From contig NZ_LT549890.1 of the NCBI RefSeq assembly GCF_900079115.1, positions 1,230,001-1,262,000 on the forward strand: a stretch of 32,000 nt of DNA. The letters run 5' to 3'. Within the stretch, counting starts at the first letter, position 1. Every line of letters begins with the position of its first letter. The stretch comes from Saccharolobus solfataricus. GTDB lineage: Archaea > Thermoproteota > Thermoprotei_A > Sulfolobales > Sulfolobaceae. Shown here in pieces: positions 6,092-25,459 of this stretch. A program made the translations under genes and the position numbers. Below the pieces are notes generated by a model, which was not told the origin of the DNA, did no database searches, and saw only the letters and a list, made by a program, of their open reading frames with translations.

Positions 6092-7495
6092 ATTACAAAA
6101 TACTGAAAGCCTTGCCCCTTCTAGGGCAGTGAGAAATTAGCAGTGCACTGAAAACCATTAACGTTAGACTTTATCTTAATGGGGGTTAAGGGGGCGGAAG
6201 ACCCTTCTGTAAGGGATGGATAGCCCCTTATATTTTAAATATTAAGAACTACAGATATACAATTAACGTCTGACGTAGGATTCCGCTTCCGCGCTTATAC
6301 TAACGAACAAGCATTGAGGGCGTTAAAAGCCCAGTTGAGGCTAGCATGTGAGGTATATAACACCCTACGTTGGGCAGACACCTATTTCTACCAAAGGGAT
6401 GGGAAAGGACTTACACAGACGGAGTTAAGACAGATGGCCCTTGACTTAAGAAAGCAGGATGAGGAGTACAAACAACTTCACTCACAAGTTGTTCAACAGA
6501 TAGTAGATCGTTTTTACGAGGCTAAGAAGAGGTTTATGGACGGGCTAGCACGCTTTCCAAGAGAAAAGAAACCGCACAAGTACTACTCGCTAGTTTACTC
6601 TCAATCGGGATGGAAAGTGTTGAGCTTAAGGGAAATAAGAAGAAAGAGTAATCACAAGAAGAAGTTAATGAAGCTCTACCTATCTCATCTAGGAGTCTTC
6701 AACGTGATAGTACACAGGGACTTCCCTCTAGATAAGGTGAAGAGAATCATAGTGAAGTTAGAGCCGTCTGGGAGAATATACATCATTTTCGTGGTTGATT
6801 ACGAGTTCAAGGCCCTTCCATCTACTGGAAAAGTTGTCGCGATCGACGTGGGAATTGAGAAACTCGTAACTACCTCCGATGGTCAGTATTTCCCTAACCT
6901 GAAGCCTTTTGAGAGGGCCTTAACCAAGGTAAGGGAACTTCATAGGTCTCTTTCGAGGAAGAGATTCCTCTCTCATAACTGGTTCAAAGCTAAGGTTAAG
7001 TTGGCTAGGGTTTATGAGCACGTGAAGAACTTGAGGAAAGATATTTACATGAAGCTCGGTAAGTATTTTGCAGAATACTACGATATCGTGGTAATGGAGG
7101 ATATTAGCGTTAAGAAGCTGGTTGGTAAGTCTCTCAAGGTGAGGAGGAGGCTTCACGATGTTGGTTTTTACGAGTTTAGGACGATACTGGAGTATCAACT
7201 AATAAAATACGGTAAGAAGTTCACTCTCGTCGATCCAGCATACACGTCGATGACTTGTGCTAGATGCGGATACGTCAGGGAAGATTTAACTCTCTTCGAC
7301 CGCGTGTTTGTTTGTCCTAAATGCGGTTGGATAGTAGACCGTGACTATAATGCTTCTCTCAACATCTTACGTAGATCGGGGTCGGAACGACCCTCAGTGT
7401 GGAGCTCTGCCTTCTACCGCTGGCAAGGTGGGGCTATGAAGCAGGAAGCCTTGTCCGTTAGGGGAGGGTAGTTCACCAGTATAGGGAGAAAAATA
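6092..7495 (+). mobile_element. IS200/IS605-family element of the tnpB-only (IS1341-like) type; ends approximate
   Basis: It contains a tnpB ORF and no tnpA. The left end carries the subterminal hairpin TGCCC-CTTCTA-GGGCA (6113-6128), and block 6092-6126 is shared with the second element at 22046-22079. The 3' end has the stem GGGTCG-GAA-CGACCC, consistent with an omegaRNA-type scaffold. Confidence 0.7.
6314..7471 (+). CDS. tnpB: TnpB (IS200/IS605 OrfB) RuvC-like RNA-guided nuclease family protein
   Basis: RuvC motifs [17 protein letters not shown] and [11 protein letters not shown]. Zinc finger CARCG...CPKCG. Typical archaeal tail [11 protein letters not shown]. The first usable start is TTG 6314, but conserved N-terminal coding continues upstream (see findings). 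Confidence 0.9.
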
Positions 7496-10532: not shown

Positions 10533-12184
<1,652 letters not shown>

Positions 12185-13486
12185 TTATAAGGATGAAGAA
12201 GAACCTATCTTCCTCACTTGATCCATTGCCCACATCATTGGACAATATCCACCACACATAGTACACGCTTTAACCTTCGGAATACCAAACTGAGTGTAGA
12301 CTTGATAAGCTCTTTGGGGATCTATGAGCCTAGAAATCATATTATCCCACTCTAACTTACCCCTATAATAGCTAACCTCATCATCCCATTTCCTAACTCT
12401 TCTCCCTAACTTAACCACATCACCAGCGTGAGCTGCAATTCTGTAAGCAATTGCCCCTTCCTCAACTTGTTTAACAGTTGGCAATCCCAAATGTTCGGCT
12501 GGAGTCAAATAGCACAATAGATCTGCACCAGCAGCTGATGATATTGCAGCACCTATTGCAGAGGCTATGTGATCGTATGGTGCACCGACATCTATCGGCA
12601 AAGGACCTAAAACATAATATGGTACACCACCAGTTAACTTCTTCATCAATTTCACATCCCATGCTATTTCATTTAATGGTACGTGTCCCGGACCTTCTAC
12701 CATTACTTGCACACCCTCCTTTAACGCACTTTTAACCAGTCTGGCCGTTTCCAAAAGTTCACCAACTTGAAATTCATCATGAGCATCCCCCGTTGCTCCA
12801 GGTCTCAATGCATCACCTAATGAAATCACTGCGTCATATTCCTTAAACATCTCCAGTAAGTAGCCCCAGTGCTTCCTATATGGATTTTCAGAATTATTGT
12901 GTATCATCCAACCAGCTATCATATCCCCTCCCCTTGATACTATTGGAATTATCCTATTGCTCTTCAACGCCCTTATGGCTAATTCCTTAGTTATCCCAGC
13001 GTGAATTGTCATAAAGGCTACTCCATCCTTTAAGTGCTTCTCCACAGTACTCAGTAATTCATCCTCAGTGAAATACGCACCACCAGATTTCTTCTTAAAG
13101 GACTCTATGAAAACTTGATAAACTGGTACTGTACCAACAGGCAATTCAGACGCCCTTATTATCTCCCTCCTTATGTCATCTAAATCACCTCCAGTCGATA
13201 GATCCATTAGTGTGTCTCCCCACCTATTAGCAACCTTTACCTTCTCCAACTCCATTTGTAGATTTACAACTTCATCCGACGTTCCAATGTTTATGTTAAC
13301 TTTAGTGGTCAACCCTTTACCAATTGGCACCAACTTTTTGCTAGGATACTTAGCGTTCCTAATTAGGATTATTTTACACTCACTTATCCTATTTCGCACC
13401 TTCTCTACTGGAATTCCCTCAAGCTTACTAATTTCCTTCATCTCGTCTGTTATTTGGCCACTTCTTGCTTCCTCTATTATGGCCAT
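12185..13486 (-). CDS. thiC: phosphomethylpyrimidine synthase ThiC (radical SAM)
   Basis: 433 aa. Conserved blocks MTIHAGI, VSRGG and [10 protein letters not shown], plus the C-terminal CX2CX4C cluster [10 protein letters not shown]. Confidence 0.92.
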
Positions 13487-13621
13487 AAGAAATATTCATA
13501 TAAGTGAGTTATAAACCTTACTATATACTATAAGATGGGAGAATCTCCTAGTAGCTAGAACTATTCAATTTGAATCATCACTACGTAGTATTTTTCATCC
13601 TTCTCCTCTATTGTGAACAAT

Positions 13622-13815
13622 AATTTTGTTAATTTAGTATTAAGTCATATACAGCATTAGCTTATTTTCAATTCAGCATACGATTTAGATGTTGAAAGAG
13701 GAAGAGAAAATCTAACAATTCTTAATCTTCATCAAAATTTTCGTTACACAGTTACTACTTAACGAGAGTGGTTTGAAGGAAGAATTTAAACTTAAAATGA
13801 GAGAAACTGTTGTCC
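13622..13815 (+). repeat. copy A of a 170-190 bp intergenic sequence family, oriented toward the nurA-like gene
   Basis: By-eye alignment to 17232-17067 (reverse complement) and 20403-20600. Shared core TTTTCAATT..CATA.GATTTAGATGTTGA. Block GGAAGAATTTAAACT (13778-13792) is identical in copy B. Confidence 0.75.
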
Positions 13816-13833
13816 TCACTCTATGGTGTAAAA

Positions 13834-13847
13834 ATTTTATTTATATA
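13834..13847 (+). promoter_or_regulatory. TATA-box-like element for the nurA-like gene (leaderless mRNA predicted)
   Basis: ATTTTATTTATATA lies about 20-30 nt upstream of ATG 13866. No Shine-Dalgarno-like sequence lies between them. Confidence 0.4.
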
Positions 13848-13865
13848 GAAAACTAATGATTATGT

Positions 13866-15038
13866 ATGAATTGGAAAGTAACAATAAAAAATACTATTGA
13901 GGAATTAGCGAAGCTCAAAAAAGATGTTAAAATAGAGAACGAGGGAGATCCAGAACATGAACTATCTGATGCAGAAGATAAAGTTATGAAAATAGAGTTG
14001 GAGGAAGAGTTTAAGCCAACGATGTACTCCTTATACGAATTTAAATCACTTAACGATAAAAGAATAGCGTCAATAGACTCCTCATCAAGGTATTTGAGGG
14101 ACTTCTCAGTTAACACATGTCTTATCGGTCTTTCAGTATATAGTAATAGAGAAGGTTTCATAGATGGTCCCTTTACTGTAGATATCCCATATATCGGAAT
14201 CAGTAGTTATAGGGAAATATTGGAAAGCTTAAAAATTGATGACATTAACGTTAGGTACAAGAATGTAGTGAACTACTATTACGTTAACGAGCCTAATAAC
14301 GAATATAAAATCGACGATATTGCGGATGAGTTGAGATTAGAAGCGGAAAACGTTGGGCTTAAAAGGGTTATTCAGAACCACGATATAGTTATTATTGACG
14401 GTCCAATATACCCAACACCATTGGAGCTAACTGAGGAAATAAACTTAGAGACAGAAGCTAGGAGAAAGCATAGATTAGCTTATGCCAAGCTAGTAAATGA
14501 GAGAATAGAATTACTAAACAATAACGTAATTGGAGTAGTGAAAAGATTAGAGAATTCAAAGAAGCTTTGGAGAGTTAAGGAAATTAATGAAACAATAGGT
14601 AACGTTAAAAGGATGAAGGACGTAACGATTATTGAACTAATAGACGAGCGTCTTTGTAGGAAAAACTATGAGTACGTATGCACTATAGGCCCATTTAAAA
14701 TTGAATATGCCCTAGAGGTTAAAGATGAAGATGGGAGAAATGTTATAGAAAAAGTTCCAACTAAGTACGCTTATTATGTCATCATTAGAAAAAAGTACTT
14801 CCCACCAACTTTTCTGAGAATAGAGAGTACTAATAAGAACCTAGACATCTCTCCAGTTTTATCTAGACTAACGGAGAGACTAATGCCCACTTACATTGAA
14901 ATCGTTGATAGGAGAAGTAAGAGAATATCGGCATCACTCTTTTTATACGCATACGAGATTGCCTCCAATTACTTAAACATCATTCACGACGATAAAATGG
15001 GCTACCTTAGCGTAATCTCACAGTTCACCTCTGAATAG
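13866..15038 (+). CDS. NurA-like nuclease domain protein (paralog, not in an mre11/rad50 context)
   Basis: NurA-like acidic motifs [20 protein letters not shown] and [10 protein letters not shown], with the expected order and spacing. It is paired with a HerA-like ATPase. Confidence 0.6.
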
Positions 15039-16815
15039 TCTTTATGGGAACCTCACTGAAATATATGGAATACACTATGGCCAATCCCGGTGTTGCATGC
15101 CTTAGAAAATCCTCATATTCCTCCAACCCTAATCTCCTCAGTACATGACTCTCATTTCTCATAACGACTTTAGTATTGGTAAGTTGAAGAACCAAGGGAT
15201 TTAAGTCCTCGGGGACATGAGTGGCTAAAACTACCCCTATGTTCCTAACCCTACCTAGCCTCATTATCCTATTTATTAACCCCTCTACAATGTCCTTTGA
15301 TACATTCTCTTGATCAGTCTGCGGGAAGTACTCGTGGGCTTCATCCATTATTACCAAAGTTAACTTAGTCGTCTCCTTCATCTTATATAGTTCATCCTTC
15401 CAGTTGAAGAAATCCTCTAGAAGCTTATACGCTATAGTGGCAACTGCCTCTATTGACGCTGATCTATTCATAACCCAACTTAAATCCACTACTACATCAC
15501 TATATGACGAAAAAACGTCTTTAGGCTTAAAGTCCACAGTACCGGGCACGGTGAAAATACCGTAACTATCATAAGCCTTTAAGGTTCTTAAAATGGCCTC
15601 TTTAGTCTGGTAGGGAACATCAAGGCGTTTCATAGCCTCTTCGAAAGCCTTCCCCATATTAATGGTCAACATCTTTTTACTCCCATCATAAGAGGAAAAT
15701 TGTTTAGATTTAGATCCAGAGACCATCTTCAAATCGTAAAACCCGCTGATCTTTCCAAGTAGGGATCCCGGGGTTAGTCTATCTCGTAGGAAATCGCTTA
15801 GCTGATCTTCGTAAAAGGTCTGTTTCTTATCAGCTAGCTCATAAAGGTCATATCCAATTATTTCAAACATGTTATTCACAATGGCCTCCCAATACATTGA
15901 AGCCTTTGGAGTGAAATACGGAGTAATCTTATTGAAATTTTTTAGAACAGAATAGAAGTTTATTGAATAGGGTATGAGGAATACCTCTGATCCATTACAT
16001 TCCTCTAAAACTCCATCCTCTTTAACGTCTAGTATATTATCACAATCATACCAATTGGCGAATTTTTCGGCGTGATCCTTTAGCGATATCGATCTTGAAG
16101 CCTCCTCAACTACTGGCATAATTACCGCAAATCCCCTTCTCTTTTCAATTAAGTAGTTAATGAAATCCCCTTGCCTATCGAAAATGAAAGTACCCTTATC
16201 GATTTCCTCACTGCTTATCATACTTTTTAACAAAGTAGTTTTTCCAGACCCAGTTGTGCCTAAAATTAACGTATGATGCCTTAGCGTATATTCGTCAAGT
16301 CTAACGCTAGCATCAGTCTCCTCTCCTCCTGAAAATATTTTGCCTATAGTTATGCCCCTACTTGGAATATTCAAGATCTTTTCTATTAAATCGTGGTTTG
16401 GAATGAAGACTGGACTTTGAGGATCAACTGGAGAAACTGGTGGTCTTATTTTTCCGTTCTCAATCTCAGCAATTGGCTTTAGCTCCACATAAGTTGTGGT
16501 AATAATGGTTGTTGGATCCTTAGGATAGCTCAATTCCCTAATTCCTAACTTAGATAGGGCATCAGCCCTTGTTATGGCACGAACTTGTCCTAAAATTGTA
16601 ACTGGCCTAGTTATACTTCTAATGGCTAAATATTGACCTTTCTTTACATCGGAGTTTAGATAATCCTCAAACGCTATATCAACACCAATCAACTCATTAT
16701 CCTTAAGGCTAACACTCTCAAATCTAGTTATTCTACCAATTAGTTTACCGAATTTTTTCGCATCTGCTTCAGCTTCGTTTAGTTTATCCCCTAACTTCTT
16801 TACTAACTCTTCCAC
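15025..16815 (-). CDS. HerA-like (DUF87/FtsK-HerA superfamily) hexameric ATPase
   Basis: N-terminal HAS-barrel-like region (GRITRFES...GQYLAIRS...[10 protein letters not shown]). Walker [15 protein letters not shown]. Walker [16 protein letters not shown]-terminal block [24 protein letters not shown] start. Confidence 0.85.
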
Positions 16816-16835
16816 AAATATAAAAAATGTAAGTG

Positions 16836-16846
16836 AAAAATTAAAG
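16836..16846 (-). promoter_or_regulatory. TATA-box-like element for the herA-like gene (leaderless from GTG 16815)
   Basis: On the minus strand CTTTAATTTTT spans -31 to -21 relative to the GTG start. Confidence 0.4.
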
Positions 16847-17066
16847 CATTTTCGTCTTCAAACTATAGATATGCTTAGTAGATCTGTTGAATATTTTTCC
16901 ATTCAATTAATGATAAGATGTACAATTTATGTTTGCTATCTCTCTTAACTCTTAGTGGAAATTCAACAATTCCACAAGAAGCAGTGTAGATGAGGAAAAG
17001 GATCAAGAACTATAACTTTGTTCATGTCTTTATACATTTGACTCGTTTGTTTTCTTGAAACTAAAT

Positions 17067-17232
17067 GTGAATGGCAATTTCATTCATTTCAGACTCAGTT
17101 TAAATTCTTCCGAACTACATTAGTTAAGTGCTTTAATTGTGTGACAAAATCCTTGGCAAATGGTTTAAAATTGTTACATCCTCTCCTCGTCAACATCTAA
17201 ATCTTATGTTAAATTGAAAAATAACGAATACC
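17067..17232 (-). repeat. copy B of the intergenic sequence family, oriented toward the herA-like gene
   Basis: The reverse complement reads TTATTTTTCAATTTAACATAAGATTTAGATGTTGACGAGG...GGAAGAATTTAAACTGAG... It aligns with copy A over its whole length (3 mismatches and 1 gap in the first 33 core columns). Confidence 0.75.
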
Positions 17233-17429
17233 TTTTATGGCCGTTGTTTTACACACTCCTTAGAAATACTTTAGCCTTACCCTCTCTCTTTTTTGAAATA
17301 TTTTCTTTGTCATGATAATAAAGAAGATAAAGGGAGTAGTGGTGTCATTTCCTTCAGAGAGGATAATGAGGGAGATAGTAGAAGAGTTAAAGGAAGATGA
17401 AAGCAAGAACAAGAAGTGAATTAACTTTT

Positions 17430-19109
17430 TTATTGTCCTCCTTTTTCTTTTTTCCATTTTTCTATTAATCTATTAAATTTATTTATATTATCTGGATTTA
17501 GTGTCCCTATAGTGGATCTTAAAACTTCAACGAACTTATATATATCAGAATTGTTGTCATCAAGACGGGAATATATATCCAGCGCTGTCTTTAAGCTAGC
17601 CGGTGAGATATTAAACTTTATTACCTTATCTTCTTTTTCATTTAGATTAACTCTAAGATATTTTACAAGATCCTTAACTTTATTCTTAAAGTCCTCACTA
17701 AAAGAAGCGTAAGTTTTAAGAAATTCATCTAAATCTTCGGTTTCTTTCGGATAATCAAAGTAAATTATCACGAACCTTCTTGCCAGCGCATCTCCAACAT
17801 AAAACAGATTTCTAGCATCGACTAAGTTTATTGTAGCAATAATTCGTATTCTTTTTAATGGTTCATTCTCTCTACTCTCCCTCTTTAACTTCTCATATAT
17901 TTCTAAGAAACTCTTGGTTACATTATCTATATTATCTCCATAACTCTTAATTTCCTCTATTAGAGCATTGGGAATTGACCATTCGCTAGGATATGGAGTA
18001 GAAAATATTGTCATTAATTCTCCAAATGCCTTATCAACGTCAGCCCTATTCAATTCATCAATTACGACGTAATAGTTCCCATCCTTTATTCTTGCAGCAT
18101 TTACGTAAGCTTCAATGAAAAGCCCGCTCTTCCACATTACAGATCCCTCTCTTATACTTTCTCCTCCTATCAAATTCCTTCTAAACCAAAGTGAATTGGC
18201 AGTAGCTACTTCATAACAGTTATCATTATTACCAGTTAAAGCTCTCACAGTCCTTATAGCTAAGCTAGTTTTTCCAGTACCAGGTGGGCCAGCTAGGAGT
18301 ACATTAGTAGTTTGTAGAGCTTTCAGTATAATGTTAACTGAATCTTGAGGAATATAGAAACCATTAAGATCTATTTGTGCGTTTTTATTACAAACTACTT
18401 CCTCTGATAGGTATTCTTTCTGAGTACTGAAACGAAACTTAGAATAAAATTCTAAAGTAGACCTAATTTCCTCTTTCTTCGATAGAATAAATTGTTGAAA
18501 AGCTTTAACTGCATCATTATTGTCTTCTGTATAGCATTGGTTTGATTGATTATTAACCCCTTCTAACTTATAATCTTCTCCCACCCATTTATTACTGTCA
18601 TTATAGTTTTTTCTTATGCTTTCGTGAAGCCAAAATATTTTTATTCTAAATCTTACTATCCAGACTTTGTCACCTTCCTTCCATCCTTTAAAATTCCTCA
18701 TCGCGTCCTTTGTGATATCCGTTACTACTCCGAATCCAATAATGCCTAGCTCTTTTGTTCTTAGAAGGGCTACCAGTATTTTATCGTTCTTAATTTCTAT
18801 TTTATTTTTATTCTCTGTATCATTTTTCTTATCTTTTCTCTTCTTATCTTCTCCAAAATAGATTTCGTCATACCTGTTTAAAATGCTACTAATATTGCTA
18901 CGATTTTCAGCCGAAGCACCCCATAAAGTATATCCTAATTCTCCATAAAAAGAATATTTTATAGATTCTACCCAATGAGATTTTTCACCTATAAAGAAGC
19001 AAGGAACAAAATTTCCTTTTTCAATATAATCGAGAAAAGTTTGCGCACTATCTTGAGAGTCTAGTAATTTTTTGAACTTGTCTCTGACTACTAACCAATC
19101 ACCATACAC
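17430..19109 (-). CDS. McrB-like AAA+ GTPase with a distinct N-terminal (possibly PUA/EVE-like) domain
   Basis: Walker A LLAGPPGTGKTSLA. McrB-type Walker B/sensor block YYVVIDELNRADVDKAFGELM. NxxD-type motif ATINLVDAR. The roughly 230-aa N-terminal region (FFIGEKSHW...LWG...LGIIGFGVVTD...GDKVWIVRFRIKIFW) has a PUA-like pattern, interrupted by a K/N-rich insert. GTG start. Confidence 0.85.
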   Translation of the reverse strand: MYGDWLVVRDKFKKLLDSQDSAQTFLDYIEKGNFVPCFFIGEKSHWVESIKYSFYGELGYTLWGASAENRSNISSILNRYDEIYFGEDKKRKDKKNDTENKNKIEIKNDKILVALLRTKELGIIGFGVVTDITKDAMRNFKGWKEGDKVWIVRFRIKIFWLHESIRKNYNDSNKWVGEDYKLEGVNNQSNQCYTEDNNDAVKAFQQFILSKKEEIRSTLEFYSKFRFSTQKEYLSEEVVCNKNAQIDLNGFYIPQDSVNIILKALQTTNVLLAGPPGTGKTSLAIRTVRALTGNNDNCYEVATANSLWFRRNLIGGESIREGSVMWKSGLFIEAYVNAARIKDGNYYVVIDELNRADVDKAFGELMTIFSTPYPSEWSIPNALIEEIKSYGDNIDNVTKSFLEIYEKLKRESRENEPLKRIRIIATINLVDARNLFYVGDALARRFVIIYFDYPKETEDLDEFLKTYASFSEDFKNKVKDLVKYLRVNLNEKEDKVIKFNISPASLKTALDIYSRLDDNNSDIYKFVEVLRSTIGTLNPDNINKFNRLIEKWKKEKGGQ

Positions 19110-19133: not shown

Positions 19134-20339
19134 TTAAATGTGTTCTTTCATTATCTTATCGATCTTCGATAAATTATTTTCATCTGACTCCAAAGGATCG
19201 ATGATAATCATATATAATAAATGACTATTATACCAAAAGTCTAGTATTCCGCTTTTTGCTCTGGCAATCCCATCCAATTCCATTGTAGCCTCATCTTCGT
19301 TATCGAAGTTAATTTGTTTAATTTCCAATCCAGGATAAACTAATACTGCTAATGAAGGATCATATTCATAAGTATAAGCCATAATTTTGAATCTACCCAT
19401 TGTAATATAACTAACTTTAGATGAGTACTTACATTCAAAGATAATCGGCCTTTCGTTAACAAGAGAAATATCCGGTCTTCCCTTATATTTCTCTATATCC
19501 TCTATATAATCAACCTTTCTTAGAGAGGATTGGCTAAGTGAGGCATTAAATATTATACTTAACCTCCTATTACCTCTTATAGCTATATATTTCTCTTCCT
19601 CCTTCTTTATTTCATAACCTTTAGATTCAAGGTAATTTACTACTAAGTAGAATACATAAAGCTCATATAATTTCCACATGATGAATTTTATTAATTTCTT
19701 GTTTATAGGCCTCTTGGGTGTCCTTATCCCTACCTTAATTTCCTCTAATTCTTTAGCCGTATAATACGCTTTGTATGCTCGTAATAACCAATCTGGGTCA
19801 GTATAGGACGGATCTCTAAAATAACCATCCGGAAATTCCTCCTTGATTTTATCGAGCTGAGAAAAAGTCTGGTCGAAATCATCCAAAAAATTAAAGTAAC
19901 GAGGTACTTGTTCTTTTCTTACTTCAATTTTACTTCGTTTTTCCTTAATAATGGAATAAATTCTTCTCGTAATATAGCCTAAGATTCCATATTCTGGAGC
20001 ATTATATCCCTCGGTAAAGCTATGATAGGCTACCAAACCCATAGAGTATACCGGAATACTTAGGTCTACATTCAACTCACCATAAAGGTCATTGGAGTAT
20101 TCAATTGAAAATTCTCTATAGGTTAATCTACTCTTTTTTGCATCCTCTGCAGATCTTACTACACTAGCTGTTATTAAGTACATAAGGTAATAATAAATAT
20201 ATGATAGTGTATAGTCATCTAGAGGGACTTCCTCAGTTCCATTAAAAGTTGAGAGCAACTTTTCAACATCTAAGATCCCCTTATATTGTAGATAATAACT
20301 TCCAACCTTTTTTAGAAGCGCCCTATCTCTCCTATTCAC
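19134..20339 (-). CDS. McrC-like PD-(D/E)xK nuclease subunit
   Basis: The C-terminal half carries YELYVFYLVVNYLE, then GRPDISL...RPIIFECKYS (a PD...ExK catalytic motif) and FKIMAYTYEY, matching McrC layout. It ends 24 nt upstream of the McrB-like gene on the same strand. GTG start. Confidence 0.65.
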   Translation of the reverse strand: MNRRDRALLKKVGSYYLQYKGILDVEKLLSTFNGTEEVPLDDYTLSYIYYYLMYLITASVVRSAEDAKKSRLTYREFSIEYSNDLYGELNVDLSIPVYSMGLVAYHSFTEGYNAPEYGILGYITRRIYSIIKEKRSKIEVRKEQVPRYFNFLDDFDQTFSQLDKIKEEFPDGYFRDPSYTDPDWLLRAYKAYYTAKELEEIKVGIRTPKRPINKKLIKFIMWKLYELYVFYLVVNYLESKGYEIKKEEEKYIAIRGNRRLSIIFNASLSQSSLRKVDYIEDIEKYKGRPDISLVNERPIIFECKYSSKVSYITMGRFKIMAYTYEYDPSLAVLVYPGLEIKQINFDNEDEATMELDGIARAKSGILDFWYNSHLLYMIIIDPLESDENNLSKIDKIMKEHI

Positions 20340-20402: not shown

Positions 20403-20600
20403 AATTTTATTAATTCAGTACAAATCATATGAAGTGTTAATTCATCTTCAATTTAACGTATGATTCAAATGTTGAAAAGAGAAGAGGAGGCAATTTTTAA
20501 TTCTTTTTCAAAAATTTTATTACATAACTAAAGTATCTGATAAATGTGGCATTAGAGAAATTTAAACTTAGTTTCAAATGCATGAAATCGTTATCCATTC
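20403..20600 (+). repeat. copy C of the intergenic sequence family, oriented toward the ATPase gene at 20820
   Basis: AATTTTATTAATTCAGTA...CTTCAATTTAACGTATGATTCAAATGTTGAAAAGAGAAGAGG...AGAGAAATTTAAACTTAG aligns by eye with copy A from 13622 onward and with copy B. Confidence 0.7.
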
Positions 20601-20783: not shown

Positions 20784-20822
20784 AACTTCTGGGGCAGAAG
20801 TTGAATTCTGGGGCAGAAGTTG
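20784..20822 (+). promoter_or_regulatory. tandem palindromic operator-like repeat overlapping the ATPase start codon
   Basis: The 17-nt unit TTCTGGGGCAGAAGTTG occurs twice (20787-20803 and 20806-20822, period 19). The first copy sits in a perfect palindrome AACTTCTG-GGG-CAGAAGTT (20784-20802). An A/T-rich TATA-like AAAAAATTATAA lies at 20774-20785. Confidence 0.6.
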
Positions 20823-21881
20823 CTATTTGATGAAAGGCCTAAAGAAAACAGAGAAGACTTGTTTGATAGGGAAAAAGAGATTAAAGAAATAATGAGTAAC
20901 ATTAACAGGCCTTTGATTTTAATCACTGGAGTCCGAAGAATAGGTAAAACATCAGTATTAAAAGTCGCACTTAATGAGATAAAAATACCCCATGTCATAA
21001 TAGATTGTAGAAACTTACGCCCTAACTACAGTAGAGGGGATCTATACTCACTATTCTCTAACGCTTTTTCATCAAAACTATCCACCTTCCTTGACGTGCT
21101 AAGTAAGATAAGAGGGGTTAGCATTTTAGGTAACAGCGTTGAACTAAAATGGAAGGGTAGAGAATACGTCAGTTTATCAGATCTTTTTGATCATTTGAAC
21201 GAGAAAAGGATAGTAATAGGGATTGACGAAGCTCAAAAATTGAGGGGACCATTATCAAATGAAATAAAAGAAGCTATTGCTCATGCTTACGATTATGACA
21301 AAAACTTAACCTTTATTTTAACGGGCTCTGAGGTGGGACTACTTCATGACTTTTTAGGAGTAGAGGACCCCGGGTCACCGCTCTATGGTAGATACTATTT
21401 CGAGATAACGTTAGAAAGGTTTGATAAAGAAAAGAGTAGGCAGTTTTTAAGAAAGGGTTTCGAGGAGTTATCATTAAAGGTCGAGGAGAATGTAATACAA
21501 GATATCATCGCAATGGTTGATGGTATCCCGGGATGGTTAACTTTAGCAGGTAATCAATATTTCAATAATAGGGATTTGAAAAGAGTAAAGGATCTGGCAA
21601 TAAACGTTGCTTTGAACGAAATTAACAGCTTGATCTCGGTTAAAAATAACGTCTCTCCCATTGTAGCAAAACGTTACAGAACAGTCCTAAGGTGTATAGC
21701 TAAGGGAATGAATAGTTGGAGTAAGATACTCAATTGTGTACAAAATGAGGAAGGTAGTACAATTTCCACTAGTGTTCTTAGTAACATTCTAAATACTTTG
21801 AAGAAATTGAGCATCATCGACGAAAATTACCGATTTTTAGACCCAGTTTATAAGGAAGCGTCTAGGATGCTTAGAAATTAA
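20820..21881 (+). CDS. archaeal ATPase family protein (Arch_ATPase/PF01637-like P-loop with C-terminal DUF234-like wHTH)
   Basis: N-terminus LFDREKEIKEI, Walker A LITGVRRIGKTSVLK, Walker B IVIGIDEAQKL, and a helical C-terminal region. TTG start at 20820. Confidence 0.8.
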   Translation: MLFDERPKENREDLFDREKEIKEIMSNINRPLILITGVRRIGKTSVLKVALNEIKIPHVIIDCRNLRPNYSRGDLYSLFSNAFSSKLSTFLDVLSKIRGVSILGNSVELKWKGREYVSLSDLFDHLNEKRIVIGIDEAQKLRGPLSNEIKEAIAHAYDYDKNLTFILTGSEVGLLHDFLGVEDPGSPLYGRYYFEITLERFDKEKSRQFLRKGFEELSLKVEENVIQDIIAMVDGIPGWLTLAGNQYFNNRDLKRVKDLAINVALNEINSLISVKNNVSPIVAKRYRTVLRCIAKGMNSWSKILNCVQNEEGSTISTSVLSNILNTLKKLSIIDENYRFLDPVYKEASRMLRN

Positions 21882-23644: not shown

Positions 23645-25459
23645 ATGCCATTACCAGTAATACTACATGAAACTACTCAAGTTAAAGATTTAGTTACTGC
23701 ATATAGGGAAACGTTTAATGAATATCCTTCTGTTGAACAAGAAAACACGTGGAGAAGGCTCTTAGATATACTTAAAGGCCTTAATATATCTCATCCTATA
23801 ATCATGGAATATCCAATATTTACAGAAAGAGTTGACACTATCTTTGTAGATAAAAATAGAGCCTTAGTAGTTGAGGCTAAGGGTTGGAAGAAAGTAGAAC
23901 GAATAGATGATCTCACTATTAAGGCTGATGGAGAGCTTCACTTAGATCCATGTTATCAACTAAACAACTATGTGACTAAATTAAACACTTTCCACTCCTC
24001 AAGTATAAAATTTGATGGTACGCTCTTCCTTTATAACACTATGGACTATTCCTCCTCGGAATGTGAAGTGTTAAGAAACCCTAATGATCTGAAGAAGAAA
24101 CTTGATAACTATTCGCCGGGAGGCATACAAGATGCTGACAAAATAGTAAACGGGAAGTTTGTATTAACCAAGGACTTCATTAAATTTGTTGCTGAAGTAA
24201 AAGAACATTTAAAAGGGAACGTGGCTAAGGCAATTTTACCTTATGGTTTTGGTCTAACAGAGGAACAAGGTTTAATCTTAAGCAAAGTTTTGAAAGCTCT
24301 TGAAGATAAAGATGTGAAGAAGAACTTTCTTATAAGAGGTGGTAGTGGGTCTGGTAAGAGCTTATTAGCCGTGACTATCTTCCTTGAAGCGTTTAGTAGG
24401 GGCTATTTCACTATCTTATCTTATGTGAATCAAAGATTACTAAATACCATAAGATTACTACTAGGTGGAAGTGAAAGGAAACGTAAAGAAGGTAATATTT
24501 ACAGAAGTAAAGCACAAGCTTTATCCCAGTTTATTATGTTTTACTCGACGGGTTATGGTTTCGGAGTGGGAGAGGAGAAGTTCCCGGAGTGGTTTAAGAA
24601 AACCTTTGAAAGAGATGTAGACGATATAGACTTAATCGTATTTGACGAAGCCCAAAGGATGAATGTTAACGTAATAAAAAATTCTTCAAGAGGAAGGGTT
24701 AACGTGTATTTTTATGACGACTCTCAGATATTATTAGGAGATGAAGAGGGGACTGAAGAGACCTTTAAAAAGTATCTTACCAACGTGGAAGAATACCAAT
24801 TATCCTCATCTATAAGGGTACCAAAGGATTATATAGAGGCAGTGAAAGGCTTACTTGAAGGGAGGAAAGTTACGGTAAGGGGCTATGATTTTAGGATCTT
24901 CAATGATGTAATGAGTATGATAAATGAATTAAAGAAAAGGAAAGACGAGGGCAGAAAAGTGGCGTTAATATGCAGCTTCACGGAATCTGTGGGTGATAAG
25001 AAAAATAAGACAAAGTGGACTTTAGAAAACATAAGGATAGGGTATCCGTTACAATCTGGTTTCGATCTTTACAAGAATACCAGTTTAAGGGTTAAGTGGC
25101 TTATGGATGAGAAAACTGAATATCCTAAATACTGGAGAGGAGAATTAGATCCCCTACAATACTGTGCCTCAGTATATGGTGCGCAGGGATTTGAGGCAGA
25201 TTATGTGGGAGTTGTATGGGGAAGAGACATGATATGGAGGGATAGTTGGACCGTCAATCCAGACCTTACACCTATTACGGATTATGTGGGTGGAAGGGAT
25301 TCCTTAAAAAAAGTGTTAAAAAGACACAAAACAAAGGCGCTTAAACTACTAAAGAATAGATATTACATTATGTTAACCAGAGGGATAAGAGGAGTTTATC
25401 TCTTCTTCGAGGACCGTCAAACTGGTGAGAAAGTAGATGAATTAGTTGAGGTTATGTAG
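23645..25459 (+). CDS. DUF2075-type P-loop NTPase (SF1-helicase-like) with N-terminal PD-(D/E)xK-like nuclease domain
   Basis: N-terminal RVDTIFVD...ALVVEAKGWK (a D...ExK pattern). Walker A IRGGSGSGKSLLA. Walker B LIVFDEAQRM. C-terminal YYIMLTRGIRGVYLFFED is typical of DUF2075. GAGG lies about 10 nt upstream of the ATG. Confidence 0.75.
   Translation: MPLPVILHETTQVKDLVTAYRETFNEYPSVEQENTWRRLLDILKGLNISHPIIMEYPIFTERVDTIFVDKNRALVVEAKGWKKVERIDDLTIKADGELHLDPCYQLNNYVTKLNTFHSSSIKFDGTLFLYNTMDYSSSECEVLRNPNDLKKKLDNYSPGGIQDADKIVNGKFVLTKDFIKFVAEVKEHLKGNVAKAILPYGFGLTEEQGLILSKVLKALEDKDVKKNFLIRGGSGSGKSLLAVTIFLEAFSRGYFTILSYVNQRLLNTIRLLLGGSERKRKEGNIYRSKAQALSQFIMFYSTGYGFGVGEEKFPEWFKKTFERDVDDIDLIVFDEAQRMNVNVIKNSSRGRVNVYFYDDSQILLGDEEGTEETFKKYLTNVEEYQLSSSIRVPKDYIEAVKGLLEGRKVTVRGYDFRIFNDVMSMINELKKRKDEGRKVALICSFTESVGDKKNKTKWTLENIRIGYPLQSGFDLYKNTSLRVKWLMDEKTEYPKYWRGELDPLQYCASVYGAQGFEADYVGVVWGRDMIWRDSWTVNPDLTPITDYVGGRDSLKKVLKRHKTKALKLLKNRYYIMLTRGIRGVYLFFEDRQTGEKVDELVEVM

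Follow-up and report, generated by a model that had tools for sequence, protein, structure and literature searches.

Introduction

A family of NurA/HerA paralogs linked to CRISPR has been known since 2012, and the core idea considered here is already present both in the literature and in libraries of hidden Markov models (HMMs) for defence systems. A nurA-csm6-herA cluster was reported in Pyrobaculum (Bernick 2012, PMC3396285), and Tagg_0814/0815 and the "Cas HerA/Cas NurA" proteins, partners said to always go together, were described by Vestergaard 2014 (PMC3973734). The "Type III coevolved" NurA and HerA models derive from CRISPR accessory clusters 57/58 of Shah 2018 (PMC6546367), and Cas NurA/HerA are listed again among putative CRISPR auxiliary genes (PMC10910872). 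A role in pre-spacer supply or target clearance has been proposed for the family (PMC3396285, PMC5587795). Here we compare with this family a convergent NurA-like/HerA-like gene pair of Saccharolobus solfataricus, located in a 32,000-nt stretch of contig NZ_LT549890.1 (positions 1,230,001 to 1,262,000, forward strand; hereafter the window, whose own numbering is used throughout). On balance, sequence and model comparisons lead us to favour reading the pair as a free-standing, re-oriented Sulfolobaceae branch of the Cas NurA/HerA family.

The cell's housekeeping counterpart is the canonical S. solfataricus repair operon SSO2248-SSO2251 (SSO2251/SSO2248; PDB 4d2i and 2ygk). Its published equivalents in S. 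islandicus are SiRe_0061-0064. The canonical HerA-NurA end-resection complex (including T. kodakarensis 9x1l-9x1p) has the same two folds and catalytic logic as our pair, an RNase H-like D-E-D-H/D nuclease and a HAS-barrel plus RecA-like ATPase, and in mechanical terms is presumably a machine of the same kind. However, the pair has no mre11/rad50 operon, and the proteins are related to their canonical counterparts at only ~12-14% identity and template modelling (TM) scores of 0.4-0.5.

Two further groups resemble the pair. Bacterial HerA-effector anti-phage systems (SIR2-HerA/Nezha and HerA-DUF4297; 8wof, 8j4u, 8xau, 8zit, 9c1m) also join a HerA-family ATPase to a nuclease or toxic effector, but in our pair the partner is NurA, not SIR2 or DUF4297, and the lineage is archaeal. 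SiRe_0094/0095 (= SiL_0094/0095, Saci_0148) is another pair of NurA/HerA paralogs outside repair that these organisms carry; this operon was reported in S. islandicus to be bound by Csa3a and a viral ribbon-helix-helix regulator (PMC5587795, PMC9976892). Unlike the window pair, it is a co-directional operon at another locus, and position sets the two apart, with the S. islandicus REY15A ortholog of the window pair located at ~540 kb of CP002425 (~538.5-541.5 kb) and thus away from gene 94.

The gene pair and its predicted folds

As the earlier note on this DNA had described, the two genes converge and share 14 nt at their 3' ends; both open reading frames (ORFs) were recovered with exactly the boundaries given there.

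13866..15038, + strand: NurA-like nuclease gene (390 aa, ATG start; AAK41562)
15025..16815, - strand: HerA-like ATPase/translocase gene (596 aa, GTG start; AAK41563)
15025..15038, no strand: 14-nt 3'-3' overlap of the two genes (nurA-like TAG at 15036-15038; herA-like TGA at 15025-15027, - strand)

The GTG start of the HerA-like gene is supported by homologs, in which M1 is nearly invariant and an N-terminal helix is conserved. The pair is probably SSO1325 (nurA-like) and SSO1326 (herA-like); these tags are assigned only because thiC, which lies immediately upstream of the nurA-like gene across a divergent intergenic region, is SSO1324. Literature searches of main text with SSO1325/SSO1326 and alternative names turned up no study of the pair.

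The NurA-like protein matches Pfam NurA (PF09376) over the whole profile (2.3e-39, 135.8 bits, cut-off 21; residues 66-353). At the sequence level, neither the protein (E <= 1) nor its family profile (E <= 10) matched any solved NurA in a search of all PDB sequences, though 2ygk was included. Since these searches found nothing, a fold search was needed. Structure prediction followed by Foldseek had been proposed earlier for both proteins, with the absence of a NurA fold in the 390-aa protein named as the outcome that would sink the idea, and the search returned predicted NurA and HerA folds with conserved active sites. The AlphaFold (AF2) model of the NurA-like protein, built with 26 homologs as input, is confident (predicted local distance difference test, pLDDT, 90; predicted TM score, pTM, 0.90). 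Its 12 best Foldseek PDB matches are all NurA structures at probability 0.97-1.00, with TM only ~0.4 and identity ~12%; S. solfataricus 2ygk is best (1.8e-7), and T. kodakarensis 9x1m, T. maritima 1zup and P. furiosus 3tal are also among them. The protein thus has the RNase H-like fold and family match of a NurA nuclease.

The active site is conserved as well. D71 (14076-14078), E161 (14346-14348) and D178 (14397-14399) are invariant over 26 close and 100 distant NurA relatives, and E155 and D348 are nearly so, which would provide the catalytic Asp-Glu-Asp set and a fourth His/Asp metal ligand. The metal ligands of PfNurA are Asp51, Glu105, Asp126 and His411 (PMC3300031); mapped by order and secondary structure, without superposition, the acidic residues of the NurA-like protein would correspond to these.

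The HerA-like protein matches the Pfam DUF87/HerA central domain (6.4e-11, 43 bits, cut-off 23), and its AF2 model has a pLDDT of 86.8. All 50 of the 50 Foldseek matches listed are HerA-family ATPase structures (3e-23 to 3e-20), including T. kodakarensis HerA-NurA, HerA-DUF4297, SIR2-HerA, S. solfataricus 4d2i, D. radiodurans HerA and TdpAB. Walker A GTTGSGKTT (residues 186-194; 16234-16260) and Walker B DEAH (residues 491-494; 15334-15345) are invariant in 28 relatives, in which the arginines R519, R522 and R524 are also conserved. The protein therefore combines the features of the HerA/FtsK clade, namely an N-terminal barrel, a RecA-like core, Walker A and B motifs, an arginine finger and the HerA fold.

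One rival reading is DNA transfer, in which the HerA-like protein would pump DNA and the NurA-like protein would process it during intercellular exchange. The model would be the TdtA ATPase and NurA-like nuclease of Thermus thermophilus ICETh1, or CedB/CedD of the Sulfolobales, which place HerA/FtsK-clade ATPases in DNA processing other than repair. Published HerA-like/NurA-like cases (PMC5365140) and the Ced system offer precedents, and the HerA-like protein does match the TrwB/T4 coupling-protein DNA-binding domain (2.4e-7) and CedD (42 bits). These matches are weak and at the level of domains, though; the CedD cut-off is 600 bits. Moreover, neither protein has a membrane segment (maximum 19-residue hydropathy 0.99), and neither the window nor the related loci examined contained pilus, channel or conjugation genes. 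We regard a transfer function as very improbable.

Relationship to the Cas NurA/HerA family

Among the HMMs searched, the strongest HerA assignment came from PADLOC, whose models carry no curated cut-off: the HerA-like protein matched "HerA Type III coevolved" (PDLC01055) at 1.1e-48 and 164 bits, with every other HerA model at or below 63 bits. The NurA-like protein matched "NurA Type III coevolved" (PDLC01056) at 4.3e-12, and the same Cas-type model matched 90 of 100 NurA relatives, the best at 2e-127. An exhaustive profile search of 1.84 billion representatives returned 175 NurA relatives at E <= 0.001, 40 of them at <= 1e-30. With only 175 relatives, the NurA-like group is, by this search, a small and distinct subfamily.

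To place the pair, a set of loci was compared that represents about 20 distinct organisms or contigs; the labels beginning with L below denote individual loci in this set. Neighbour-joining (NJ) trees of the HerA-like and NurA-like proteins, midpoint-rooted and built without support values or a repair outgroup, agree in placing the cas-embedded pairs in the sister group of a Sulfolobaceae clade. In both trees this clade comprises a convergent subclade and a subclade of S. acidocaldarius and Stygiolobus, and Desulfurococcales pairs with a ~680-aa HerA fall outside both the Sulfolobaceae and the sister clade. Over 91 non-independent pairs, the distances for one protein correlate with those for the other (r = 0.94), suggesting that NurA-like and HerA-like proteins have been inherited as a unit.

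The genes around the relatives point in the same direction. Loci with adjacent cas genes, CARF genes or arrays are L018, L021, L022, L031/32, L033 and L034. In L022 and L034, the pair closes type I-A cas operons (Csa3 / Csa5-Cas7-..-Cas3-..-CsaX-NurA-HerA), and the L022 cas locus is followed by a 114-repeat CRISPR array. L031/L032 read Cas6...Cas7...Cas3-HD / Cas2-Cas1-Cas4 / NurA-HerA-Csx1 / Csa1, and L018 reads Cas4-Cas1-APE2256-Cas6-NurA. In L033, NurA-HerA lies 6 kb from Csx1 and an APE2256-family gene. Traces of this setting persist within the clade of the window pair itself: in S. tokodaii, a complete Csx1 gene (710 bits to a CARF-HEPN model) precedes the nurA-like gene by 38 nt on the same strand, UBA167 has a Csx1 HEPN fragment upstream, and a minimal CARF gene lies 4 kb away in A. 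manzaensis. The earlier suggestion of a defence rather than a repair context is thus borne out by the relatives, which tie the pair to CRISPR-Cas and defence settings and not to mre11-rad50.

Some other features of these loci were recorded. A 1050-aa DEAD/Helicase_C protein gene follows NurA-HerA co-directionally in L033 (3212-6364), which suggests a three-gene variant of the module. The Desulfurococcales ~680-aa-HerA pairs L023 (5370-12040) and L017 (7306-12887) have no adjacent cas genes and adjoin a DHH-family phosphoesterase in a conserved neighbourhood; L023 additionally has histone-deacetylase-family, CYTH and PD-(D/E)xK genes near the pair.

Orientation of the pair in relatives

The layout of the pair was compared across the same set of loci, including a search for the convergent form in other genomes that had been proposed beforehand.

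S. solfataricus: convergent, 14-nt overlap
Aramenus: convergent, 20-nt overlap
A. manzaensis: convergent, 38-nt overlap
S. tokodaii: convergent, 53-nt overlap
UBA167: convergent, 53-nt overlap
L008: convergent, 56-nt overlap
A. hospitalis: convergent, 71-nt overlap
S. islandicus REY15A: convergent, 42-nt gap
L024/L025 (separate subfamily): convergent, 20-nt overlap
S. acidocaldarius: co-directional herA->nurA, 14-nt overlap
L014: co-directional herA->nurA, 14-nt overlap
Cas-embedded and Desulfurococcales relatives: co-directional nurA->herA
Two Stygiolobus-type loci: NurA-like gene without adjacent HerA

The convergent arrangement marks one Sulfolobaceae subclade spread over four genera. Like the Cas NurA/HerA family, the window pair matches the Cas-type HMMs, is placed as sister to cas-embedded pairs in both midpoint-rooted trees and belongs to a group some of whose members keep a CARF/Csx1 neighbour; pairing with the partner gene also holds in most loci examined. 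It differs in that the family is co-directional nurA->herA, whereas in S. solfataricus herA is inverted, so that the genes converge with overlapping 3' ends. It also differs in surroundings: cas genes and arrays are absent from the 32 kb, and the island around it carries a Schlafen-type helicase and an ATPase_2 protein as well as an McrB-type pair.

The overlap itself looks incidental, since its length runs from none to 71 nt across loci. Antisense interplay between the two transcripts, which had been suggested for S. solfataricus, finds no footing here: the shared stretch falls on poorly conserved C-terminal tails, and the genes are co-directional in S. acidocaldarius and the cas-embedded relatives. 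Some overlap of the 3' transcript ends is nonetheless likely because the termination signals of each gene must sit inside the other. No hairpin terminator was found at the gene overlap with a bacterial-type scan, which is uninformative for archaea and whose promoter matches were below the shuffled expectation.

Two loci with an unpaired nurA-like gene deserve mention. In L011 (9893-11161; Stygiolobus) and L012 (9776-11008; a related Sulfolobaceae), no HerA-like gene occurs within 10 kb of the NurA-like gene. Stygiolobus species encode this HerA-like family elsewhere in the match list, so the pair may be split there. In S. islandicus REY15A (L020), a 259-aa gene (13075-13854) lies 42 nt upstream of the nurA-like gene in the same direction and may be a dedicated regulator of the pair. 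It was considered as a CARF sensor and rejected as such: only the winged-helix part of the Csa3/CasR models was matched, and the C-terminal half has no assigned family.

The genomic neighbourhood of the pair differs in every genus, and the HerA-like gene is truncated in UBA167 and in some genomes of S. islandicus and A. infernus. Together with truncated or frameshifted copies in some genomes, the loss of cas linkage could be taken to mean that the pair is a decaying, non-functional remnant of a formerly cas-linked module. We consider this extremely improbable. Both ORFs are intact and 100% identical across many S. solfataricus assemblies, no catalytic or ATPase motif varies among 26 to 100 relatives at 20-70% identity, and the two proteins have diverged in step, as the distance correlation given above shows.

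Comparison with repair HerA and NurA

The claim that these genes are paralogs and not the repair genes themselves held up. Against NCBIfam repair equivalogs, the HerA-like protein scored 46.1 bits for helicase_HerA (cut-off 970) and 35.8 for HerA_Thermprot (cut-off 800), failing both. Its family profile found 9c1m, the HerA of HerA-DUF4297, as the best solved structure by sequence (69.7 bits, nearly full length) and reached only 34.7 bits with S. solfataricus HerA 4d2i. The NurA-like protein has no sequence match to 2ygk. Linkage to mre11/rad50 is lacking, as had been noted before; the annotated ORFs of the 32-kb window gave zero matches to Mre11 or Rad50 families, and none were found in any related locus examined. 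By these comparisons, the pair is not the cell's housekeeping HerA-Mre11-Rad50-NurA repair set.

A different question is whether the pair is a specialised or back-up paralog for DNA repair or recombination, which would resect chromosomal ends or process stalled forks, with the CRISPR context of its relatives reflecting a borrowed repair module. The two folds and catalytic motifs are those of the repair complex, and NCBI names the NurA-like protein "DNA double-strand break repair nuclease NurA". The gene tree roughly tracks genus relationships, which suggests long vertical retention, and the neighbours in S. islandicus and S. acidocaldarius are mostly metabolic genes. Other Sulfolobales NurA/HerA paralogs have also been discussed as repair genes (PMC5587795). 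On the other hand, the repair-HerA equivalog cut-offs are missed by a wide margin, no sequence similarity was detectable between the NurA-like protein and solved repair NurAs, no mre11 or rad50 lies near the pair, and the sister clade is embedded in cas operons. Truncated copies occur in some strains, and a response to ultraviolet light (UV) is lacking: in a published UV time course SSO1325 was not induced (log2 ratios -0.34 to -0.10), which is weak evidence because canonical Sulfolobus repair genes are not UV-induced either. Taken together, we judge a repair role doubtful, yet it deserves serious consideration.

Neighbouring genes

Upstream of the herA-like start, the window carries a set of genes with possible defence functions.

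17430..19109, - strand: 559-aa McrB-type AAA+ (AAA_5) protein (AAA_5 1.6e-12; ~240-aa N-terminal region without assigned family)
19134..20339, - strand: 401-aa protein, just upstream of the McrB-like gene; presumed partner
20820..21881, + strand: 353-aa ATPase_2/MCM-type winged-helix protein (Pfam; PADLOC candidate-system models PDC-S27, PDC-S01)
23645..25459, + strand: 604-aa Schlafen-group-3-type helicase (Pfam SLFN-g3_helicase 1.1e-72)

The first two had been described as McrBC-like. An McrB-type AAA+ domain is genuinely present in the 559-aa protein, which matches NCBIfam McrB (6.3e-16; 58 bits for the whole protein, below the cut-off of 637) and the sequences of E. coli McrB structures (2e-14). 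The gene order is 401-aa partner and then ATPase. However, the 401-aa protein had no match in Pfam, PADLOC, NCBIfam or PDB sequences, and no McrC similarity was detected. By eye, its C-terminal end contains a PD-(D/E)xK-like "RPDISL...FECKYS" motif.

Several of these neighbours recur near NurA/HerA pairs in other genera. Homologs of the 559-aa (55%) and 401-aa (60%) proteins are paired beside a different NurA/HerA subfamily on metagenome contig L025 (13524-16398), Acidianus manzaensis has a homolog of the Schlafen-type helicase (49% identity) at 3 kb from its pair, and an ATPase_2 homolog (31% identity) lies 3.6 kb from it in S. acidocaldarius. This recurrence suggests a variable, defence-type island and not a fixed multi-gene system. 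The McrB-like pair was also considered as an obligate partner of NurA/HerA and rejected, since it turned up in just a single further type of locus, where it stands on the opposite side and beside a different subfamily.

The window also carries tnpB, ilvC, thiC, a paa cluster and genes for an ABC transporter, isocitrate lyase and malate synthase, along with a PolB-exo-like ORF; no tRNAs were found in it. Over 19.6 kb aligned, it is 99.98% identical to AE006641, with one indel and a ~1.4-kb insertion as the differences, and AE006641.1 encodes a HerA-like protein of identical sequence. The insertion carries a DDE_Tnp_1 transposase gene and disrupts tnpB in AE006641; it is absent from the window (window 6314-7471). 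The indel falls in the ATPase_2/MCM winged-helix gene (20820-21881), which is intact at 353 aa in the window and called as 162 + 182 aa in AE006641. These differences mark the window as belonging to a strain or assembly of S. solfataricus other than AE006641.

Two small ORFs were also seen. A 65-aa ORF (17260-17457, - strand) overlaps the 3' end of the McrB-like gene, matches no family and is probably spurious, although it is a gene call in several assemblies. A 203-aa ORF (10533-11144, + strand), between an unannotated 283-aa ORF and ilvC, has a weak DNA_pol_B_exo2 match (PolB-type 3'-5' exonuclease, 1.6e-5).

Promoter candidates and a repeated element

Each gene of the pair had been credited with its own leaderless-type TATA box. 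The candidates seen here are listed below.

13836..13847, + strand: TATA candidates of the nurA-like gene (TTTATTTA at -30..-23; perfect TTTATATA at -26..-19)
16838..16845, - strand: weak TATA-like TTTAATTT of the herA-like gene (-30..-23 of the GTG; two mismatches, 17% background)

This stands for the nurA-like gene, where the background for a match with <=1 mismatch at that distance is 2.7% and where the candidates are compatible with a leaderless or near-leaderless mRNA. For the herA-like gene it does not stand firmly. Stronger matches lie at -11..-2 (16817-16826), but these are too close to the GTG and cannot serve a GTG-containing transcript.

A conserved element of 170-190 bp had also been reported ahead of each gene of the pair. 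We found three copies of this ~190-nt element, the first two scored by nhmmer against a joint c1+c2 profile.

13631..13817, + strand: copy c1, in the thiC/nurA-like intergenic region; ends 49 nt before the nurA-like ATG; nhmmer 6.9e-50
17066..17255, - strand: copy c2, inverted relative to c1; gene-proximal end ~250 nt upstream of the herA-like start; nhmmer 1.7e-54
20415..20597, + strand: copy c3, ~220 nt upstream of the 353-aa ATPase_2 gene; nhmmer 6.2e-18

Copies c1 and c2 are therefore real and ~75% identical, and the three copies are 65-78% identical. The simple picture of one element per gene does not fit, however, given the distance of c2 from the herA-like start and the presence of a third copy. 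A role as promoter of both genes is likewise unsupported, as the element is specific to S. solfataricus (no copy was found in orthologous loci of the other species examined) and c3 precedes an unrelated gene.

The nature of the element was pursued in several ways. Rfam gave no family on the whole window at gathering thresholds or on the c1 region at E <= 1. An RNAalifold consensus on the three copies was weak on both strands (-12.5 and -8.4 kcal/mol), three sequences being too few, and a structured RNA finds no support. The ends have no terminal inverted repeats, so the element is not a classical miniature inverted-repeat transposable element. On reading, no conserved ORF was seen in the copies. 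Three metagenome matches to a 31-nt core of the element turned out to be one sequence, inside an ORF of a phage-like contig whose translation resembles a single-stranded-DNA-binding protein by eye. Since they share only the AT-rich core, these matches were judged irrelevant or due to chance.

The copies alternate in orientation: c1(+)/c2(-) bracket the NurA/HerA genes and c2(-)/c3(+) bracket the McrB-like and 401-aa genes. This geometry raises the idea that inverted copies delimit a small cassette, mobile or invertible, which carries the pair as cargo, so that the element and not the proteins would account for the local architecture; this reading does not exclude any of the others. The absence of the element from orthologous loci of other species would fit, as would the position of the McrB-like cassette in L025, where it flanks a different NurA/HerA pair on the other side. 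Yet the copies reach only 65-78% identity and lack terminal inverted repeats, the island contains no recombinase, and the element had no match in plasmid or phage collections. The convergent layout, common to four genera, is also far older than the element, which is much younger and so cannot be its cause. We think such cargo status improbable.

The island also invites a broader proposal, in which the convergent pair would be an autonomous, CRISPR-independent DNA-degrading defence with NurA as effector, an archaeal counterpart of the bacterial HerA-effector systems. In S. solfataricus it would be one of three cassettes (nurA, herA and ATPase_2, with the McrB-like pair between copies) that are co-regulated or shuffled by the lineage-specific 190-nt element acting in cis. 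The best solved match of the HerA-like profile does come from HerA-DUF4297. Against the NCBIfam HerA_antiphage equivalogs, the HerA-like protein scored only 28.9 (cut-off 800) and 20.7 bits (cut-off 850). We consider this combined proposal unlikely.

Discussion

We lean towards the view that the pair is a HerA-ring/NurA-dimer machine that came from a CRISPR-Cas accessory module, is now free-standing and acts on foreign DNA. Both genes would encode subunits of one nuclease-translocase machine. The HerA-like ring ATPase would pull double-stranded DNA through its pore, while the NurA-like protein, with its RNase H-like fold, would dock on the ring as a dimer and cut the strands, so that linear or broken DNA would be resected or destroyed. 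The comparisons presented here show the two folds, the conserved catalytic motifs, the paralogy, the joint divergence of both genes and the cas setting of relatives; complex formation, the DNA substrate and the defence role of the pair are what we infer from them.

The proposed history starts from the sister lineages, in which the pair either supplies the final two genes of type I-A interference operons (Csa5-Cas7-Cas3-CsaX-NurA-HerA) or is placed between cas4-cas1-cas2 and csx1. The herA gene would have been inverted, and the pair would have departed from the cas locus, in Saccharolobus, Acidianus, Sulfurisphaera and Aramenus. Its use against foreign DNA might then be in trans with the host type I-A and type III systems, in pre-spacer generation or target clearance, or else autonomous.

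Several observations weigh against this interpretation. No cas gene, CARF gene or CRISPR array was found in the 32-kb window, so any CRISPR link would act in trans. The literature searched contained no experimental function even for the cas-embedded family. Assignment to the Cas family goes by HMM score, with the PADLOC models lacking a curated cut-off, and the rooting of the NJ trees is subject to the limits stated with them. Foldseek fails to separate repair from defence HerAs, all of which fall at 1e-23 to 1e-20. The metabolic neighbourhoods in two species and the low weight of the UV data belong on the same side. A defence role for the pair is therefore plausible, but it is not new in kind.

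What appears to be undescribed is the stand-alone Sulfolobaceae clade, its derived convergent layout and its occurrence in genetically tractable hosts. Caution is also advisable where databases call these genes "DNA double-strand break repair nuclease NurA". The branch is carried by the tractable Sulfolobales S. solfataricus, S. islandicus REY15A and, in co-directional form, S. acidocaldarius (AAY80480/AAY80481). As it is distinct from the essential repair operon, the role of the family, whether in CRISPR adaptation, in clearing targeted DNA or in acting alone, would be open to knockout testing in these organisms.

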